Shown in pieces: positions 4,153-14,644 of a stretch of 64,000 nt of DNA. The DNA is taken from positions 109 through 64,108 of the forward strand of contig CAZOFP010000003.1 in assembly GCA_964579475.1 (NCBI GenBank), given 5' to 3'. The DNA comes from an uncultured Candidatus Saccharibacteria bacterium. Lineage in GTDB: Bacteria > Patescibacteriota > Saccharimonadia > Saccharimonadales > CAYOYH01. Within the stretch, counting starts at the first letter, position 1. Each line of letters begins with the position of its first letter. The notes under the pieces were generated by a model. That model saw only the letters and a list, made by a program, of their open reading frames with translations, searched no databases and was not told the origin of the DNA. Made by a program: the position numbers and the translations under genes.

Positions 4153-4473
4153 ATGGAAACAGAAAATCATTCGGAAGAAGAGTTTGTTGTACAGCTAGGC
4201 TTGCTTAATGGTCGCGGCGCTGGTCGCAGGATTAAAAATTATCTTAAAGACTCCGGGAGAGCCAAACAAGTTCATGTTGTAACTTTGCTTGAATCTATTG
4301 CCGATCCCGACAGAACAGCCGAACTAATCGAAGGACGCACTGGCCTACTCTACTCTTTAGGGCCAATCGCTATTACTTCAGAGATGCGCCCCAACAAACT
4401 TATTACGGTAAGCAGCCCTGTGAGAGTGCGCATGTATACGTGCCACGAGCTCTTGGCGCACTGGCAATCATAG
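4153..4473 (+). CDS. hypothetical protein (possible 5' part of a frameshifted gene)
   Basis: ORF track. Overlaps the next ORF by 34 nt in another frame. Confidence 0.4.
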   Translation: METENHSEEEFVVQLGLLNGRGAGRRIKNYLKDSGRAKQVHVVTLLESIADPDRTAELIEGRTGLLYSLGPIAITSEMRPNKLITVSSPVRVRMYTCHELLAHWQS

Positions 4474-4844
4474 GTACAGACTACTTTTCAAACATGATGA
4501 CTTTTAATGGCGAGAGGACTAACCATATAGCTGCTTCAACAACTCGTGAAATTATGAATCTAAAAAATGTCCCAACACATTTTAAGTTAGCCAAGGCTGT
4601 ACTTGACTTTTCCATGGTGGATTGGGCGGACGCAATGCGTGAGTCTAATGACCAGCTCGAGCGTATTATGGTAGTGGTGACCGACAGAGATAGAGTGACG
4701 ACACACTCAGAAGATTACGGGGCGACAGTTCGTGAGCACGGCATGTCTTTTGTAGAAGTTCGTGGTCGACATGACACTCTATTGACCCATCCCCAGCGCC
4801 TTTTTGAAGAGATGGATACTAAATTATTTGAACAGGTTGCCTGA
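4440..4844 (+). CDS. hypothetical protein (possible 3' part of a frameshifted gene)
   Basis: ORF track, GTG start. Its frame stays open well upstream of 4440. C-terminus HDTLLTHPQRLFEEM resembles the catalytic-His end of alpha/beta hydrolases (weak). Confidence 0.4.
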   Translation: MPRALGALAIIGTDYFSNMMTFNGERTNHIAASTTREIMNLKNVPTHFKLAKAVLDFSMVDWADAMRESNDQLERIMVVVTDRDRVTTHSEDYGATVREHGMSFVEVRGRHDTLLTHPQRLFEEMDTKLFEQVA

Positions 4845-5336
4845 GAGATTTTGAATAGCCGCGATTTCGTCATCACCTAATCTACCAAGAACAAAATCGG
4901 TAGTATCTGCTTTATCAGCGAGTTCCGTCCTTATACCAATACGCACCCGGTGAAAATTATTGCCGATATATGTAGCCACTGACTCGATTCCGTTATGTCC
5001 GGCGCTACCACCACCAGTTTTCCGTTTTACTTTGCCTGATGGTAAGTCGAGCTCATCGTGAACTATCGTAATTTGGTCATTTTCAAGTTTATAAAAAACC
5101 TTCAGTGCCTGCACTGTTCGTCCGCTAAGATTCATAAATGTTTGAGGTTTGGCGAGTATGAGCTTGTCGCCATTTTCATCTGTTGTTTCAAGGATTTCAG
5201 CTTTAAATTTGTCTTTTGACTTCCACTTACCTAGCTTATTTTCTTGGACATACGAATCCAGCGCAATAAACCCAGCATTATGCCGAGTTTTTGCGTACTG
5301 CTTTCCTGGATTTCCGAGTCCAACTACAAGTTTCAT
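4824..5336 (-). CDS. pth: peptidyl-tRNA hydrolase
   Basis: MKLVVGLGNPGKQYAKTRHNAGF and GGSAGHNGIES signature. Confidence 0.92.
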   Translation of the reverse strand: MKLVVGLGNPGKQYAKTRHNAGFIALDSYVQENKLGKWKSKDKFKAEILETTDENGDKLILAKPQTFMNLSGRTVQALKVFYKLENDQITIVHDELDLPSGKVKRKTGGGSAGHNGIESVATYIGNNFHRVRIGIRTELADKADTTDFVLGRLGDDEIAAIQNLSGNLFK

Positions 5337-5562
5337 AAGTATGAGTATACTACAGCCGCGGCATAGACAAATACCGAAAGATATGCTAGAGTATGTATAC
5401 TTTCACAATTTCGTGAGGGAGATTTTTGACAAGAAGTACAAGAAACAAGATGGGAATAAAGCACGTTTATTAATAGTGTGTTCTATTCTCATCTTGTGTG
5501 TTTAGGATACATACGCTAGCTAAGCTAGAGGCGAATTATGCCAAAGACGAGGGAAGGTAATT

Positions 5563-5964
5563 ATGCCCGACGCAATGACGACTATCGACCCCGAGCAAGT
5601 TTCAGCCATCTTCATGGACTGCTTGTTCAAGGAAGGTGAGGACACATCCGGACATGTGATCGCCGAGGGTCTTACTACCGACGTCGGTTTTCATCCGAGA
5701 CGTCTTGAGGGTCATAAGCAGACTGTCGGCGAGATACTGACTTTGCTGCCCAATGAGTTCCTGAGTGTCGAGCGCGGCGGAGGTGGAGGCTGGAGCTTTC
5801 TCAACGCATGCAATGATGTGAACGGAAACCAGTGGACGGGGTTTCATAAGACGGTGGAGCAACTCATGCTACTTGGTCTCGCAACCGGGCAGGTCGAGTA
5901 CCAACTCCCCAAAAAGATGTGGGCTCTTCTGCCTGGTAAGATGCCGTATTTCTCGGTCGTTTGA
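5563..5964 (+). CDS. hypothetical protein (orphan, 133 aa)
   Basis: ORF with RBS GAGGGAAGG 5-13 nt upstream of the ATG. No family recognised. Confidence 0.55.
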   Translation: MPDAMTTIDPEQVSAIFMDCLFKEGEDTSGHVIAEGLTTDVGFHPRRLEGHKQTVGEILTLLPNEFLSVERGGGGGWSFLNACNDVNGNQWTGFHKTVEQLMLLGLATGQVEYQLPKKMWALLPGKMPYFSVV

Positions 5965-6079
5965 CCAAGAAACTGATTTCCATGGCGGTGGTGACAAGAA
6001 GAGAGTAGTTTGGGCTGACCCAGGCGTTTGGCTCTTGTGCCACTCACCTTTCCTAAACTATTGTCTTCTTGTCATTACC

Positions 6080-6128
6080 GCTTCAATGAGTGTGTGCTCA
6101 TTCTGATGAGTCCAAAAGGACGAAAAGC
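6080..6128 (+). ncRNA. hammerhead self-cleaving ribozyme, type III topology
   Basis: GCTTC|AATGAG-TGTGTG-CTCATT-CTGATGA-GTCC-AAAA-GGAC-GAAA-AGC. All invariant core nucleotides, three helices and an NUH (UUC) cleavage site are in canonical order. Predicted cut is after C6084. Confidence 0.85.
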
Positions 6129-6130
6129 TA

Positions 6131-6760
6131 CTAGTTTTTCACTAGATCAAAGCTACCTCGACCAAGGCCTAGCTTTGTAATGCCCGCGGAGAATAGTTTT
6201 TTCAGCCCAAATAAAGAGAGTGTATCAGCATAAACTTGACAAGTTAGCATAAGCATGATAAGATATAAGAATCTAGTGGAATTTCTGCTGGATGAACGTT
6301 GAAAGGGAATGTTTAGACGAAACGAGTTCATAAAGTGAATTGGTTTTGTCTAAACATGACAAAAGGTGTTGGGTCTTCGGATCTGACTAGTTATCGAGCA
6401 GCCATGCGAAATAACAAATCTTCTGCATCGGAAATTGTACGGTATGTGCAGAAGGAGCCCGTACTCACTGAGAAAATGATCCAAGAACATTCCTCAGTGA
6501 AAACTAACACACTTATAACATGTGGTTGCTACGAGATGAAGCAGAGAGTCTGGACTCTTTGTGGAATCGAGGATTGCCCTCGTAAGGCAATTGTCGCAGG
6601 AGCGTCGCAAGACGTTTGAGCGGACAATCATGTGTGGTTACAAAGCCCAACACCCAGGTGTCAACGCGTACAGGATAATGGCATCGAAATGTGTAGGAGT
6701 TTTCCTTCGGGTGAACTTATGGCATTTTCGGTCCCGTATGGCCTGGATACGTGTTGGGTA
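6131..6760 (+). ncRNA. candidate large structured RNA / giant leader downstream of the hammerhead
   Basis: No convincing ORF. At least 12 helices can be read by eye, including a 15+5 bp hairpin at 6309-6357, UUCG-capped stems at 6372-6383 and 6699-6716, a GCAA-capped stem at 6601-6616, and a long-range 8-bp pairing 6646-6653/6751-6758. G-U pairs and tetraloops are only valid in + sense. Confidence 0.45.
6236..6264 (+). promoter_or_regulatory. sigma70-like promoter candidate
   Basis: TTGACA (6236-6241), 17 nt spacer, TAAGAT (6259-6264). Confidence 0.35.
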
Positions 6761-6801
6761 AACTCTTCACCTTGTATCTCTTACGAGAAAAAGGAGGAGA
6801 G

Positions 6802-7080
6802 ATGCGTGTATATATCAACCCAAAAACTGATTTCGGTTTCGGACTGGAGTCAGACGAGATCACCTCTCAGCAACTAGCAATATTTGCCGAGATGGTGTTC
6901 TCCAAGAAGAGTGTCGACGGCCGCGCCGAATGGTACTACGACGAGTTCGTAGATCCAATCGAGCACGGTGTCAAGATCGACATCAACGGGTTAGATAGGG
7001 CGCAGTTCATCTTGATCATTGGCCAAATTGCAGATCGCTGCTTGCAGCATTGTGACAAAGTCGTGATAGAGGTGTCATAA
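6802..7080 (+). CDS. hypothetical protein (orphan, 92 aa)
   Basis: Strong RBS AAGGAGGAG at 6791-6799, then ATG at 6802 (MRVYINPKTDFGF...). No family recognised. Confidence 0.55.
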   Translation: MRVYINPKTDFGFGLESDEITSQQLAIFAEMVFSKKSVDGRAEWYYDEFVDPIEHGVKIDINGLDRAQFILIIGQIADRCLQHCDKVVIEVS

Positions 7081-7089
7081 CCTATCCCT

Positions 7090-7143
7090 AAAAAGGGGTG
7101 AACCAGAGTGCGGTAGCTTCGGCTACCAAACCTGGTTCACCCC
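7090..7143 (-). terminator. very stable compound hairpin; T-run only on the minus-sense side
   Basis: GGGGTGAACCAG 7095-7106 pairs perfectly with CTGGTTCACCCC 7132-7143. Inner stem is GGTAGC-TTCG-GCTACC. In minus sense it is followed by TTTTT (7094-7090); in plus sense there is no U tract. Confidence 0.5.
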
Positions 7144-7212
7144 AACTCCCCACAGGTGTGTATAGATGGTGAGTTTAAAAGAAAACGAAATTATCTGATG
7201 AAAACAGTGGAA

Positions 7213-7252
7213 GCGTGACGCACATCACACAAAAAGCGTGATCTATGTCACA
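7213..7252. promoter_or_regulatory. two tandem GTGA-N6-TCACA palindromes (CRP/FNR-type operator-like)
   Basis: GCGTGAcgcacaTCACA at 7213-7229 and GCGTGAtctatgTCACA at 7236-7252, with starts 23 bp apart. Confidence 0.3.
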
Positions 7253-7393
7253 ATTTGGGGCTCCTCTCTCCACTAAAGAAAACCGATTAAGAAAAAGTAA
7301 AGTTTCACTGAATGATGAGCTCGAGATTCGTCTGGTTACCCCTCCATTTTTAAGCAAGGTAGCTTTGGTTGATTGAGAGCCTCAGCGAAAATC

Positions 7394-7486
7394 GTTATTT
7401 CTTAGTAAGTTTTTGTCTAGTGGAGGCAATTTTATGTTCTTTTTGCTGGCAAAAAAATAATGTGGTGCGCTGGCGAAACAACGCAG
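7394..7486 (+). repeat. intergenic repeat family B (~95 nt), copy 1
   Basis: About 85 percent identical by eye to the reverse complement of 13266-13361. Shared blocks are GTTATTT.TTAGTA, TTTTTGTCTA.TGGAGGCA and GGTGCGCTGGCGAAACA. Confidence 0.8.
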
Positions 7487-7506
7487 ACCCTCTTTGCCAA
7501 AGAAAA

Positions 7507-8832
7507 CTACTTCTTTCGGGAATTAACTCGTTTTTCTTTAAATTCCCATTTGATTGCTGTGCCAGCGAAGCCAAATTGCTCTCGGAACTCTCTGTCGAGG
7601 TATCTTTTGTAGCTCCAGTGCAAAAACTCGGTGTGGGCGCCGAAAACCGTGAACTCTGGCGGATTAGTACCGGTTTGAGTGATGTAGTTAAGACGTGGGT
7701 GGCGGTTTTTGAGCCCAGCTGGTGGATGTTGTGATATTTTGTCTTTCAACCAGCTGTTTAGCGTTGAGGTGTTTATTTCTTTGTCTCGCTCGGTATCAAC
7801 TCCCATGACGATATCAAAAATCTTAGTTACGTTTTGGCCGGTTACCGCACTGGTGAAGATTAACGGTGTCCACGGAACGAAATTGAAAGCTTTGATTATC
7901 TTCGGGGCTAAGTCGTCGCGAGTAAATGCATCTTTGTCGATAGAATCCCACTTACTAACAACCAGCACCAGACCTTTGCCAGCGTCTTTGATCATGCCAG
8001 CAATCTTTTGGTCGAGGTGAGTTGCTGGTTCGCCTGCGTCGATGAGTAGCAAACAAACATCGGACATTTCGATAGCTTGCAGACTACGCAGAACACTAAA
8101 CTTCTCTATCCCCTGCTCGATTTTGCCTGGGCGGCGGATACCGGCGGTATCGATGAATTCAATCTCGTGCTCGTGGTAGCGGACAATGGCTTTGTTTACG
8201 TCGCGCGTTGTGCCAGCGACGTCGGCTACAATGGCCTGTTGTTTCTTGGCCAGCGAGTTGAAAAGATAGCTTTTGCCAACATTTGGCCGGCCAATCAGCG
8301 CTACACTGACTTTGTCTGATTTCTTGTGCTCTCTTTTGGGGAGTTGTTTGGTTACTATATTTAGTAAATCGTCGATTCTGCTGTTGTGTTCGGCTGAGGT
8401 GGCGATGAGCTCCTTGATACCAAGTTTTAAGAAGTGTTCTGAGCCCTGGGCATCGACCTTATCCGATTTATTAATAGCTAAAGCTACAGGCTTGCCTGTT
8501 TTCAGTGCGAGCTTGGCTACACGACGATCTTCCTCGGTTATTTGGACGTTGGATTCAACAACGACGATGATGACATCGGCTGAAGTTGCGGCTTCGCTGA
8601 TTTGTTCTTGGATGGTAGCTTCGAAATCGTCTTCGGCTTTTTTAAGCCCGGCAGTGTCAACCAGCCAGAAGTTAAATCCGTCGTGTTCGACAACTTCTGC
8701 GATAGAATCTCGAGTCGTGCCAGCTTCGCGTGCTACAACAGCTCGTCTATGCCCGACAATGCGGTTAAACAGACTGGACTTGCCGACATTAGCTCGGCCA
8801 ACGATTGCAACGATTGGTAGTTTCTTACTCAT
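7507..8832 (-). CDS. der: ribosome-associated GTPase Der/EngA
   Basis: Two G domains (GRANVGKSS and GRPNVGKSY, DTAG twice) plus a C-terminal KH-like domain. Confidence 0.93.
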   Translation of the reverse strand: MSKKLPIVAIVGRANVGKSSLFNRIVGHRRAVVAREAGTTRDSIAEVVEHDGFNFWLVDTAGLKKAEDDFEATIQEQISEAATSADVIIVVVESNVQITEEDRRVAKLALKTGKPVALAINKSDKVDAQGSEHFLKLGIKELIATSAEHNSRIDDLLNIVTKQLPKREHKKSDKVSVALIGRPNVGKSYLFNSLAKKQQAIVADVAGTTRDVNKAIVRYHEHEIEFIDTAGIRRPGKIEQGIEKFSVLRSLQAIEMSDVCLLLIDAGEPATHLDQKIAGMIKDAGKGLVLVVSKWDSIDKDAFTRDDLAPKIIKAFNFVPWTPLIFTSAVTGQNVTKIFDIVMGVDTERDKEINTSTLNSWLKDKISQHPPAGLKNRHPRLNYITQTGTNPPEFTVFGAHTEFLHWSYKRYLDREFREQFGFAGTAIKWEFKEKRVNSRKK

Positions 8833-11374: not shown

Positions 11375-13114
11375 TTATATATTTGTTGGCTTCTGGACGG
11401 TTGAAAGTGGCGTTTTCTGAGCAGTCTCAAGTTGCTTCAGCTGGTCAGCTTTTGTTTGGTCTAACCGAGGTAATTCTATAAAGAAGGTACTGCCTTCACC
11501 GAGTTTACTCTCTACCCAGACACGCCCATGGTAGAGTTCAACAATCTTTTTAGTTATAAACAGCCCAAGCCCGGTGCCGCCTACCTGGCGAGTTGCAGAG
11601 TTGTCAACGCGATAGAATTTCTGAAAGAGGTGTCCGACGTCTTCGGGCGGGATTCCTGCACCGGTATCAGTGATGCTAATAGTCATGGTTTCTTGGTTGC
11701 CGGTAAAGCCAATGGTTAGCTTGCCTTCCTCGGTGTATTTGACTGCGTTGTCGAATAGATTGGTTAGGACTTCGCGCATTCGTTCTGGGTCGATGTTGGC
11801 CAGATACACGGGGTTCATTGCACCTCCACCAGACTTTGCGGCTCCAGCGCCAAACGACTGAATGACCTGCAATCCCTTTTTCTCTGCAGTAAAGCGCATA
11901 TCTTCAACGATTTGTTCCATGAAGGCTGACATGTCTGTAACCACAGGGTTGTTGGTTAGCCTGCCGTCCTCGGATTTGGCAGCAGTTAGGAGATCTTGGA
12001 AAAGTTTGCCTAGATGCTGAGTAGACGCATGAGCTTTTTCTAAGTAGCCTTTGGCCGCGGAATCAATCTTTGAAACTTTGTCATTTAGAGCTAGAGCCAA
12101 ATAGCCTTCGATGGCGGCTACAGGTGTACGCATTTCGTGTGATGCCGTAGAGATGAACTCGGCTCGTTGTTTCTGCTGATGACGTTCTTCGGACACATCA
12201 CGGAAGACGACCGCCACTGCCTTTACTCCGCCGTCTCTGTCATTAATTGGCGAGACTACCAAAGTGACTTCGATGATTTTCTCCGAACGAGTCTTGAGAG
12301 ACAGCTCGTCATTTATCAGAGATTTGTTTGAAGCTAGAACAATTCTAATTGGATCTTTGCTTTTGTCGATTGGCACACCCTTTTCATCTTGTAGTTTCAG
12401 CAGAGAGCGGTAGTTAAGTCCGATGGCGTCAACTTTACTCCAGCCAGTAATATCTTCGGCGGCTTTGTTGAATAGTTTTAGCGTGCCTTCCAAATCTACA
12501 ACCACCACACCCTCGGCGATTGATTCGATGAGCAGATCTGCACTCAGGTCTTTGTCTTTAAAGCCGGAGCTGTCTTCACTAGTTTCAGTACTAGCCCCAG
12601 AACGACGCCAAATCATGTAGCTAACCATAAACGGCAGCTGCATAGTTATGAAATAAAGCAGAGTCAGAGTTAGGTCGCTACCAGAATTGACCACATCAAC
12701 AGCCATGAGTATCAGATACGCATTTGTGGCGAGCCAGGCGACGATTAGCACTGGCATGCCGAACATATAGCTAAGTATTGCTGGAATCATCCAGAGTGCA
12801 ACGAATTGTGACTGCAACCCACCAGAGCCGATTATCAGTGAAGCGATGGCTGTGGTTATTAGAATATACGAGATTAGTCCAGCAAAAAGGTGAGACTTTT
12901 TAGCCAGGAATCGATAAATAGCCAGTGAATAGACTAGTCCAAGAATTGCCAGGACGAATGTGGCAACAGGTATGCTGAGGTCAATTTCGGCTTTGACCTC
13001 GGTGAATATTAGCTCAAAACCGATGTACGCCAGTATCAACAGTGCACTCAAAGCAAGCGTTGCGTCGTTCATATGACCATACCAGCGCGGTGCTACCGCA
13101 CGAAAGAATTTCAA
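11375..13114 (-). CDS. sensor histidine kinase (multi-TM, PAS, HisKA, HATPase_c)
   Basis: H box FISTASHEMRTP, N box LFDNAVKYT, G boxes DTGAGI and GGTGLGLFI. The start codon may be the internal MNDATL. Confidence 0.88.
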   Translation of the reverse strand: MKFFRAVAPRWYGHMNDATLALSALLILAYIGFELIFTEVKAEIDLSIPVATFVLAILGLVYSLAIYRFLAKKSHLFAGLISYILITTAIASLIIGSGGLQSQFVALWMIPAILSYMFGMPVLIVAWLATNAYLILMAVDVVNSGSDLTLTLLYFITMQLPFMVSYMIWRRSGASTETSEDSSGFKDKDLSADLLIESIAEGVVVVDLEGTLKLFNKAAEDITGWSKVDAIGLNYRSLLKLQDEKGVPIDKSKDPIRIVLASNKSLINDELSLKTRSEKIIEVTLVVSPINDRDGGVKAVAVVFRDVSEERHQQKQRAEFISTASHEMRTPVAAIEGYLALALNDKVSKIDSAAKGYLEKAHASTQHLGKLFQDLLTAAKSEDGRLTNNPVVTDMSAFMEQIVEDMRFTAEKKGLQVIQSFGAGAAKSGGGAMNPVYLANIDPERMREVLTNLFDNAVKYTEEGKLTIGFTGNQETMTISITDTGAGIPPEDVGHLFQKFYRVDNSATRQVGGTGLGLFITKKIVELYHGRVWVESKLGEGSTFFIELPRLDQTKADQLKQLETAQKTPLSTVQKPTNI

Positions 13115-13265
13115 AAAGTATTTCCTGTTATTTAACCGTTACCATTATCCATGAGAAGTGAGCTTTGTTCAATCGCGCTCTTTCGGGAGCACACCCCGGC
13201 ATTACTTTTAACAGCAAAACGATGTTCTTTACCAAAAGCCTGTCCGCCTGCCGGCGGAAACCAAA

Positions 13266-13361
13266 CTGGCGCTGTTTCGCCAGCGCACCGCATCGTCTTT
13301 TTTGGCAGCAAAAAAGACACAAAAACTGCCTCCATAGACAAAAACACTACTAACAAATAAC
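13266..13361 (-). repeat. intergenic repeat family B, copy 2
   Basis: Reverse complement aligns with 7394-7486. This copy keeps intact hairpins GTCTTTTTTG/CAAAAAAGAC and CTGGCG/CGCCAG plus TTTGG. Confidence 0.8.
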
Positions 13362-13516
13362 CAAACTACACTGGAGCTCTCAAACAGCTACGCTGGCTCG
13401 TTTAGTTTTCCATAGGTGTAAACGAGCGAAGGCTCGAGCACATTACTCAGTGCAGTTTAGCTATTTCTTAATCGGTTTTCTTTAATGTCGGGAATTAACG
13501 CAATCGCCACCTCTAT

Positions 13517-13752: not shown

Positions 13753-13953
13753 TTATCGGGCTCTCTTTAGGTGTCCAACTTCTTGAAGCAGCGCTTTCTG
13801 TCTCTCGTTTGCGGAATCAATAGCGTATTTAATCACCTTTTTCTGCTTTCTAGAATTTGCGTGCACAAAAAAATCAGAGAAATCGTTTTCATCAACTTTC
13901 CTCTTCGGATCTCTTGATGGAGTAACTCTAATTCGTAGGAACTTCATACTCAT
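13753..13953 (-). CDS. hypothetical small basic protein (66 aa)
   Basis: ORF overlapping the zeta-like gene end by 26 nt. No recognisable family. Confidence 0.35.
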   Translation of the reverse strand: MSMKFLRIRVTPSRDPKRKVDENDFSDFFVHANSRKQKKVIKYAIDSANERQKALLQEVGHLKRAR

Positions 13954-14644
13954 CTATCATAGCAGCAATTTCCTTGTGAGTGTAAACTTTTTTAACATGA
14001 TCTACAATATTGTCAACGTTATAGTATGGCTTAATTCCTTTACTGTCATACTCTATGTCTCTATCAATTACATTCAATTTGATTTTATTGCCGAAATGAT
14101 TTTTTACTTCTTGGACGTTTTCAATAGACTTTACATACCTGTCGATGAACACTTCTTTGTTTATATGCCTACCTTCCTTCACTTCTCTTGCGACTGTAAA
14201 CCCCCATGCAATATCTGGTCTTAGGTGTAAGAAATATATGTGTGCAGCGTAGCCATGTCGCAATACTCTGTCAACATTGTTGATAGATTTTGGAGAACTG
14301 AACGTTCCATCCAATATGAAACTAGCTTTTCTCTTCCGAATAACATCATCCAAAATTCTTTCTAAAATAATCGATATAGCTCCTTGCACCACAGAAGAGT
14401 TCCTACCATTGTAGACGGGGATATTTGGGCGTAGTTTGTCGGGATCAATAAGGATAGGTTTTTTTGAGAAGCTGGATACCACCTCCTCTGAATATTCAGT
14501 TTTTCCAGCACCTGGGCAGCCTGCCATAAAAACCGCTAGTTTTTCTTTCAGTTTTCCTTCTGAAGCATAAGCAAAGAACTCGCCTACAAGCCTTTTCTTA
14601 TTATCGCGAGCGAATTTTTCTGCCTCTTCTTTTTGCTTGCTCAT
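13928..14644 (-). CDS. zeta-toxin family P-loop kinase (orphan)
   Basis: Walker A MAGCPGAGKT, the downstream DPD..R and ILDGT pattern, and a ~240 aa size typical of zeta/PezT-like kinases. The local sequence is strongly AT-rich. Confidence 0.7.
   Translation of the reverse strand: MSKQKEEAEKFARDNKKRLVGEFFAYASEGKLKEKLAVFMAGCPGAGKTEYSEEVVSSFSKKPILIDPDKLRPNIPVYNGRNSSVVQGAISIILERILDDVIRKRKASFILDGTFSSPKSINNVDRVLRHGYAAHIYFLHLRPDIAWGFTVAREVKEGRHINKEVFIDRYVKSIENVQEVKNHFGNKIKLNVIDRDIEYDSKGIKPYYNVDNIVDHVKKVYTHKEIAAMIDEYEVPTN

Follow-up and report, generated by a model that had tools for sequence, protein, structure and literature searches.

We examined the spacer between the housekeeping genes der and pth in a 64,000-nucleotide (nt) stretch of contig CAZOFP010000003.1 (hereafter the window, meaning this whole stretch), which comes from an uncultured Candidatus Saccharibacteria bacterium. 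The Saccharibacteria live as ultra-small episymbionts and have genomes of about 1 Mb. In the window, pth (4824-5336; Pfam Pept_tRNA_hydro, 1.3e-52) and der/EngA (7507-8832; two MMR_HSR1 domains and a KH_dom-like domain in Pfam) are both encoded on the minus strand and lie 2,170 nt apart, and the genes inserted between them are on the opposite strand. A first-pass annotation made from the sequence alone had described two open reading frames (ORFs) with ribosome-binding sites at this locus, here called ORF1 and ORF2, together with a hammerhead-like motif, a structured tract and a compound hairpin. All of these lie where that annotation placed them between pth and der, but the module it delimited ended at 7150, whereas the expanded interval runs to 7506. 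It had also noted the absence of an integrase, a transposase and a reverse transcriptase, and we likewise found no such ORF and no convincing flanking repeats in the interval. At gathering thresholds, Rfam recovered two tRNAs from the whole window and nothing more. The features of the spacer are collected in Table 1.

Table 1. Features of the der-pth spacer, in window coordinates. SD, Shine-Dalgarno sequence; aa, amino acids.
Feature	Position	Strand	Description
Unit A	5337-6129	+	leader, ORF1, 30-bp hairpin, type-III-like hammerhead
ORF1 leader and divergent promoter region	5337-5562	+	conserved in L001
ORF1	5563-5964	+	133 aa; small soluble protein; SD present; PHROG family 26039
Long imperfect hairpin	5985-6081	+	30-nt arms; directly 3' of ORF1; from inverted-repeat search
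Type-III-like hammerhead	6080-6129	+	read from sequence; below the Rfam threshold
Hammerhead stem III	6080-6083 with 6125-6128	+	GCUU with AAGC; 4 bp
Hammerhead stem I hairpin	6085-6090 with 6097-6102	+	6 bp
Hammerhead core	6103-6109; 6122-6124	+	CUGAUGA; GAA
Hammerhead stem II	6110-6113 with 6118-6121	+	GUCC/GGAC
Block carrying unit B	6130-7190	+	1,061 nt; missing at the homologous point of L001
Sigma-70-type promoter of unit B	6236-6264	+	TTGACA-17-TAAGAT; extended -10 TG
RNA B	6272-6801	+	structured RNA or leader; about 480-530 nt
RNA B 5' hairpin domain	6303-6402	+	
RNA B central three-hairpin domain	6514-6644	+	
RNA B 3' rod domain	6640-6765	+	
RNA B anti-SD	6763-6773	+	faces SD at 6791-6801
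ORF2	6802-7080	+	92 aa; SD present
Compound hairpin closing unit B	7095-7143	+	from inverted-repeat search
Two operator-like boxes	7211-7252	.	AAGCGTGA-N6-TCACA; 23 nt apart
Element C, copy 1	7258-7505	+	repeated structured element; ~240 nt

We compared this spacer with its counterparts in other genomes, using contigs and loci labelled with L-numbers (L001, L010, L116 and so on), all of which come from metagenome-assembled contigs. A scan for Der showed that in seven of eight other Saccharibacteria species (L012-L018) der is followed by pth on the same strand at a distance of 150-560 nt, which bears out the earlier description of the material between them as inserted. The eighth species, L011, carries at the same der-pth position an unlike block of 3.1 kb with ORFs for membrane or secreted proteins. 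The long spacer in the window therefore represents an expansion specific to its lineage, at a site struck more than once. We interpret the der-pth spacer of the window's Saccharibacteria lineage as an insertion hotspot that holds three independent small units, which we call A, B, and C. The explanation that we favor for the locus as a whole, and hold to be fairly probable, is that unit A is a phage-type gene followed by a probable hammerhead ribozyme, that unit B is an inserted pair of a large RNA (RNA B) and ORF2 in which the RNA serves as a cis-acting leader, and that unit C is unrelated to the other two.

The boundary between units A and B is defined by L001 and by a partial contig, L002. 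Both share the gene order mgsA-pth-ORF1 ... der with the window, and their ORF1 is 77% identical to that of the window. Nucleotide homology covers window positions 4851-6129 at 77% identity, stops exactly at 6129 and resumes only at 7468; the leader, ORF1, the hairpin and the hammerhead are thus all present in L001 and L002, without the large RNA or ORF2. At the junctions, position 6563 of L001 corresponds to window position 6129 and position 6567 to 7191, with L001 6567-6625 aligning to window 7191-7250 (local score 27, compared with 18.2 +/- 2.3 for shuffled sequences). The 1,061 nt that the window has in excess, with unit B inside, thus fall exactly between the hammerhead and the operator-like boxes. 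The opposite arrangement is found in L010 and six other loci, which have the RNA and ORF2 with neither ORF1 nor a hammerhead. L010 is 75% identical to window 6309-7084, and its locus lies downstream of a DEAD-box helicase gene. Moreover, RNA B has a promoter of its own, the best match in the interval (10/12), with counterparts at the same aligned position in L010 (TTGACT-17-TATAAT) and L116 (TTGACA-17-GATAAT). Each of these three findings speaks against the first-pass view that the parts form a coherent unit.

The closing hairpin of unit B has an outer stem in which 7095-7106 pairs with 7132-7143 at 12 of 12 positions, an inner hairpin of the form GGUAGC-UUCG-GCUACC and no T-run, and is probably a terminator or a 3' stabiliser. 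Its counterpart in L010 is GGGGUGGACA...UGUCCACCCC with a different inner hairpin, which indicates that the structure is kept while the sequence changes. Unit B is a self-contained transcription unit consisting of a promoter, a three-domain RNA of ~480 nt, ORF2, and the closing hairpin. Deletion of unit B in L001 is an alternative that would speak against its insertion in the window; we find insertion more economical because unit B holds unrelated sites elsewhere. A possible helicase remnant at 6130-6200 was rejected, having no tblastn support.

Unit A opens with a 226-nt leader that is 89% identical to its counterpart in L001, above the value for ORF1 itself (77%). The leader contains a promoter-like site (5364-5392), a terminator-like hairpin with a T-run (5400-5429) and a hairpin with 25-bp arms (5440-5502). 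The TCAC-N6-GTGA palindrome that had been singled out at the left edge of the interval (5403-5416) is indeed there, as the stem of the T-run hairpin just downstream of the promoter-like site, but its frequency as a motif does not stand out from chance (two found, one expected). The stem of the hairpin at 5400-5419 is kept in L001 (CUUUCA/UGAGAG), whereas the palindrome sequence itself is not.

Neither ORF had been assigned to a recognisable family. This does not hold for ORF1, which matches phrog_26039 (E 1.3e-27) over nearly its full length, residues 12-132 aligning to profile positions 7-127 of 129, and which has 244 homologues, mainly in metagenomes and in metagenome-assembled genomes (MAGs) of Patescibacteria; ORF2, for its part, has a small family of its own, described below. 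The ORF1 family also occurs in 19 sequenced phage genomes, several of them from jumbo phages, and in 51 IMG/VR contigs. It is tightly conserved, with the motif GGGGWSFLNAC.D..G.QWTG and two invariant cysteines. The AF2 model of ORF1 has a confident fold (pLDDT 93); searches found neither a PDB fold with E<0.1 nor a relative that is solved or annotated, and there was no match in Pfam, NCBIfam or PADLOC. Homologues of ORF1 occur in phages of Stenotrophomonas, Klebsiella, Caulobacter, Xanthomonas, and Variovorax, but in the window, as in many Patescibacteria MAGs, the gene lies on the chromosome and is not surrounded by phage genes.

Two ORF1 neighborhoods elsewhere deserve mention. In L113-L115 (e.g. 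L113 1964-2899), a Macro-domain gene precedes the ORF1 homologue by 25 nt, with PLD-like, DUF3800, and HTH genes adjoining; this neighborhood may hint at the role of ORF1, for example an ADP-ribose-related or counter-defence activity. In L003/L004, a 63%-identical ORF1 homologue is followed by an RNA-like structure of ~200 nt (5490-5690) with a perfect 14-bp closing helix (GAUGUGUAAUUUUC/GAAAAUUACACAUC), then by a tRNA (5732-5804; anticodon UUU, Lys, read by eye) and a LAGLIDADG ORF. The tRNA was the sole Rfam match there.

Downstream of ORF1 in the window, the long hairpin is conserved in L001, where its 3' arm is nearly invariant and its 5' arm still pairs, and hairpin and hammerhead together have a folding z of -7.5. 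The hammerhead-like motif has all 11 core nucleotides, stems I and II in register, and the G10.1-C11.1, N1.1-N2.1 and A15.1-U16.1 (A6125-U6083) pairs, and C6084, its predicted cleavage site, occupies position 17 in agreement with the NUH rule. Stems I and II are both capped by loops, which gives the motif a type III topology; a type I reading that uses the downstream UAGCUUU was rejected because it leaves stem I unpaired. L001 and L002 (two lineages compared) keep the core without change, and in them stem I changes from AAUGAG/CUCAUU to AAUAAC/GUUAUU. Four of the six stem I substitutions relative to L001 form two compensatory pairs (G-C to A-U and G-C to C-G). Judged by its sequence, the motif is a plausible candidate for a new member of a known ribozyme class, with cleavage predicted. 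The hammerhead would cut after C6084 and so probably give the ORF1 mRNA a defined 3' end; the ORF1 message would end in the 30-bp hairpin, uncoupled from the RNA downstream.

Several observations weigh against an active ribozyme. The Rfam model Hammerhead_3 scores the motif at 23 bits (E 0.076 in a 2.2-kb search), with a gathering score of 48.5. Stem III has just 4 bp, and two of these compete with the base of the 5985-6081 hairpin, which overlaps the 3' strand of the stem; coaxial stacking on that hairpin could compensate for the short stem. In addition, the contig L008 (GCA_006243245.1) equals the window over 4,982 nt save for a T to A change at 6104 (L008 position 3001), which turns the core nucleotide U4 into A (CUGAUGA to CAGAUGA). 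Either a sequencing error or a naturally occurring inactive allele may account for this change. Because L008 carries it in the core, hammerhead activity may be dispensable or absent. It could be that the motif is an inactive, fortuitous or decayed match within a conserved 3' untranslated structure, and that ORF1 transcripts end in some other way. Besides the Rfam score, the contested stem III, and the L008 variant, such a reading would accommodate the minimum-free-energy fold, which pairs GAAAAGCU (last base 6129) with AGUUUUUC instead, and the finding that no ORF1 homologue outside the window's own lineage has a hammerhead beside it. The complete set of core nucleotides, flanking pairs and cleavage site argues the other way, as does a core that stays invariant in L001 while stem I changes around it with compensation, and we regard inactivity as somewhat unlikely.

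The possible partnership between the hammerhead and ORF1 does not extend far. Among 66 loci with ORF1 homologues that were scanned, none has a hammerhead except the window itself and contigs that are near-identical or 77% related to it. The first-pass annotation had proposed testing whether homologues of either ORF co-occur with hammerheads, and we reject the hammerhead as a general companion of ORF1. A further candidate, in L097, was rejected since it is without GAAA and lies within coding sequence. Bacterial hammerheads that flank single phage genes have been described, with a proposed role in transcript processing (Perreault et al. 2011, PMC3088659). The window motif resembles bacterial and phage hammerheads (PMC3088659; Rfam clan CL00010) in its canonical core and type III topology and in its place directly after a small phage-family gene, where cleavage would yield gene-length pieces. 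It differs from them in scoring below the Rfam threshold, in having a 4-bp stem III that abuts a 30-bp hairpin, in being a single copy rather than a flanking pair, in having no integrase or prophage around it, and in the existence of the U4A variant. No report of a hammerhead in the phylum Saccharibacteria was found in the literature searched, and the window adds a candidate to this phylum.

We turn now to unit B. An initial search with ORF2 found one homologue, 63% identical, on L010. A full HMMER and profile search extended the family to 18 proteins of 86-98 aa, which conserve WYYDEF..P.E.G and one of which is annotated Candidatus Saccharimonadales. Between the window and L010, ORF2 has no indels, and its substitutions fall preferentially on third codon positions (23/27/37). 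The AF2 model predicts a ferredoxin-like beta-alpha-beta-beta-alpha-beta fold at low confidence (pLDDT 66 from a two-sequence alignment), and the Foldseek matches, all at E>1e-3 (best 3.6e-3), are generic or de novo ferredoxin-like folds. No Pfam, NCBIfam or PADLOC match to ORF2 was found. The family occupies eight distinct loci: the window, L010, L116-118, L119/120, L121, L122, L123, and L124. At all eight, 560-890 nt without genes lie upstream of the ORF2 homologue, while the neighbors differ at each locus and are mostly housekeeping genes. Distant ORF2 homologues led us to further members of RNA B, and homologous RNA B domains were found at most of the eight loci. RNA B and ORF2 are a conserved gene pair of Saccharibacteria that sits at unrelated chromosomal sites.

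The RNA B tract of the window folds with z = -5.9. An RNAalifold consensus of two sequences, the window and the 75%-identical L010, contains 155 pairs, 19 of which are compensatory, none broken by substitution and two in gaps, and in a consensus fold of three full-length sequences 46 of the 174 pairs are compensatory. The many G-U pairs on the plus strand identify it as the transcribed strand. Compared with L010, the tract upstream of ORF2 shows no codon periodicity (34/38/33), 10 of its 11 indels are not multiples of three, and the two sequences have no reading frame in common. A hidden ORF of 94 aa at 6335-6619 was rejected for want of periodicity, for the frame-shifting indels and because its frame is not kept in L010. 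The nucleotide identity of RNA B to L010 is 77.6%, against 68.5% for ORF2.

The three domains of RNA B are each detectable by covariance models. The 3'-domain model, built from five sequences, finds two loci on which it was not trained, L123 (53.8 bits) and L124 (46.2 bits), and gives a weak match at the right place in L122. In the corresponding alignment, 88% of the cells are paired and both partners have changed in 27 of 40 pairs; none of 500 shuffles reached these values, and slid alignments were 28-42% paired. Untrained, collinear hits were also obtained with the central-domain model (L119, 39 bits) and with the 5'-domain model (L124, 41.7 bits). The regions upstream of the ORF2 homologues in L121 and L123 have folding z values of -3.6 and -5.5. 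None of the RNA B models has a match in L001. In L121, we noticed by eye from the fold a tRNA-like sequence (~2350-2430) that follows the upstream gene and precedes the promoter of the RNA B homologue; taken with the tRNA of L003, it suggests that genes for small RNAs cluster with such units.

We searched for RNA B among known RNAs. Rfam 15 gave no match for RNA B at gathering thresholds in the window or in L001, L003, and L008, a check that covered OLE, GOLLD, ROOL, HEARO, raiA, group I and II introns, RNase P, tmRNA, 6S, T-box and riboswitches. At E<=10 over 5300-7520, only chance-level matches of miRNA type fell within 6270-6800. Exact-pattern scans for further copies were empty in three viral searches and gave five chance 16-mers in a fourth, and the 11 matches of a metagenome scan were all coding or chance. 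No description of RNA B was found in the literature searched. RNA B and ORF2 are the novel result here: the RNA represents a large-RNA family of Saccharibacteria that apparently has not been described before, is supported by covariation and has a small protein dedicated to it.

Few large bacterial RNAs have solid covariation behind them (OLE, GOLLD, ROOL, HEARO and raiA), and each of these has opened new biology. OLE RNA (Rfam RF01071), whose partner gene oapA is adjacent, shares with RNA B a large size (~500-600 nt), several domains, a narrow phylogenetic range, and a small-protein gene directly downstream on the same strand. However, RNA B matches OLE in neither sequence nor structure, the prediction for ORF2 is a soluble, ferredoxin-like protein whereas OapA is a membrane protein, the host is a member of the Saccharibacteria rather than an extremophilic Firmicute, and RNA B abuts the ribosome-binding site of ORF2, which it seems to occlude. 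Like RNA B, GOLLD, ROOL, HEARO, and raiA (Rfam; PMC12286853) are large, intricately folded and found by covariation, but none of their covariance models matches it. Their functions are unknown or newly emerging, they are not coupled to one specific downstream ORF, and GOLLD and ROOL are often associated with prophages, whereas RNA B lies among housekeeping genes. Autoregulatory leaders and riboswitches resemble RNA B in lying on the same strand as the gene that follows (here ORF2), in having a structured 5' region and in ending in a pyrimidine-rich, SD-complementary segment; RNA B differs from them in being 3-5 times the typical size and in having three separately conserved domains.

The 3' end of RNA B offers a clue to its role. 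At the various loci, 35-70 nt separate the end of the 3' domain from the start codon of the ORF2-family gene (~35 nt in the window), and a pyrimidine-rich segment upstream of the SD is conserved, with the consensus UUCUUCCCCUUG, and complementary to the SD. A conserved anti-SD that faces the SD, with the 3' domain ending ~35 nt from the start codon, suggests control in cis. Most likely, RNA B would act as a very large translational leader of ORF2: the conserved anti-SD would pair with the ORF2 ribosome-binding site, and the upstream domains would decide whether this site opens, possibly by binding the ORF2 protein or another ligand. The sequence GUGUUGGG occurs twice in RNA B (6366-6373 and 6751-6758), both copies are complementary to CCCAACAC (6646-6653), and the 5' copy co-varies with the latter segment in L116 (GUGCUGGG/CCCGGCAC) and L123 (UGCCAG/CUGGCA). 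On sequence grounds, this suggests mutually exclusive helices and a possible switch.

There are also reasons for caution about a cis-acting leader. Sequestration of the SD is a prediction on which two consensus folds disagree, the three-sequence fold pairing the anti-SD with the SD and the two-sequence fold giving the SD region a different partner. At ~480 nt, such a leader would greatly exceed known translational leaders in size. In L121-L124, four of the eight family members, the central domain went undetected even with filters off, and the comparisons rest on metagenome-assembled contigs. Alternatively, RNA B could be a stable trans-acting non-coding RNA that is processed off the ORF2 message and has ORF2 as its protein partner, in the manner of OLE and OapA. 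Such a role would be in keeping with its ~480 nt, three conserved domains and UUCG-capped helices, which are typical of large functional RNAs, with its higher conservation than that of ORF2, with the strict coupling of RNA and protein gene at eight loci, and with the low-confidence prediction of a ferredoxin-like ORF2, a fold class that includes many RNA-binding proteins. On the other hand, neither a terminator nor a recognisable processing site separates RNA B from ORF2, and both the short distance from the 3' domain to the start codon and the conserved anti-SD suggest control in cis, so that we consider a trans-acting RNA rather unlikely. A role as a cis-acting leader and a role in an RNA-protein complex are not mutually exclusive.

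A more far-reaching proposal, which we think unlikely and raise tentatively, is that RNA B is a new class of large ornate RNA specific to Saccharibacteria with a function of its own, for example as a conformational switch that senses a ligand or protein, or as an RNA-protein machine with ORF2. Were this so, organisms whose tiny genomes leave little room for 0.5 kb of non-coding DNA would be carrying, in RNA B, a giant device akin to a riboswitch. Whatever its mode of action, an RNA of ~480 nt that is strictly coupled to one protein of 90 aa in a genome of ~1 Mb should have a function worth its cost. Its three separately detectable domains, its dedicated protein and its likely translational output make RNA B directly testable.

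We also asked if unit B might be a small non-autonomous mobile element that is moved by a recombinase encoded elsewhere. This would explain the presence of RNA B and ORF2 in eight different genomic contexts and the clean boundaries of the insertion relative to L001. However, the 6130-7190 junctions show neither terminal repeats, inverted or direct, nor a target-site duplication, no recombinase lies nearby, and no contig examined has more than one copy of unit B. The best inverted repeat on either side of unit B is 20 nt long at 80% identity; the pair 6139-6158/7357-7376 was rejected as element ends because its right arm belongs to the repeated element C. Protein identities of 29-63% are about those expected from host divergence, which fits old vertical genes with shuffled neighbors, and we judge mobility of this kind to be quite improbable.

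It is very improbable that ORF1, the hammerhead, the large RNA and ORF2 were acquired together as one functional accessory or defence module: the parts lie side by side on one strand, most Saccharibacteria der-pth spacers have none of them, and ORF1 is of a phage-borne family, but their distributions are disjoint, unit B carries its own conserved promoter, homology breaks exactly where the mapped 1,061-nt insertion begins, and the RNA B models find nothing in L001. The single-module reading is thus largely refuted. Nor does the suggestion of a defence-like function find support, as PADLOC-DB 2.0 has no match for ORF1 or ORF2 at E<=0.1 and housekeeping genes surround the RNA B/ORF2 pair. Odd elements do not become a system by being neighbors in a hotspot, and this spacer illustrates in detail how a stretch of chromosome can serve as a landing pad for small orphan units.

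Unit C occupies the remainder of the spacer. The two GTGA-N6-TCACA boxes that had been noted at the right of the interval are present; boxes of the form GTGA-N6-TCAC (7215-7228 and 7238-7251) number three in the 64 kb, against 1.0 expected, and two of the three are adjacent. L001 has a perfect palindrome, TGTGATTCGTATCACA, ~25 nt after its hammerhead, in sequence homologous to the window boxes. The boxes are followed by element C, a second copy of which lies at 13262-13500 on the minus strand and is ~75% identical; L001 has an inverted copy (7347-7630, minus strand). The copies share a 24-nt core, CAYTAAAGAAAACCGATTAAGAAA, for which the chance expectation is zero. The two window copies form 61 predicted pairs, seven of them compensatory. 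Element C has no Rfam match; it could be a small RNA or leader family, and it is independent of units A and B.

Two further observations concern genes outside the spacer. Upstream of pth, two overlapping ORFs of 106 and 134 aa (4153-4844) hold the position of a single ORF of 225 aa in L001 (4621-5298) and L002. The pair may reflect a frameshift or a split gene in the window lineage; tblastn showed no similarity at E<=1e-4. The second copy of element C is ~135 nt upstream of a PAS-HisKA-HATPase kinase gene (11375-13114, minus strand). Just upstream of this copy, a zeta-toxin family gene (13928-14644, minus strand; Pfam 3.1e-31) is followed by an unassigned ORF of 66 aa (13753-13953, minus strand) that overlaps it by 26 nt, and the two may be a toxin-antitoxin pair.

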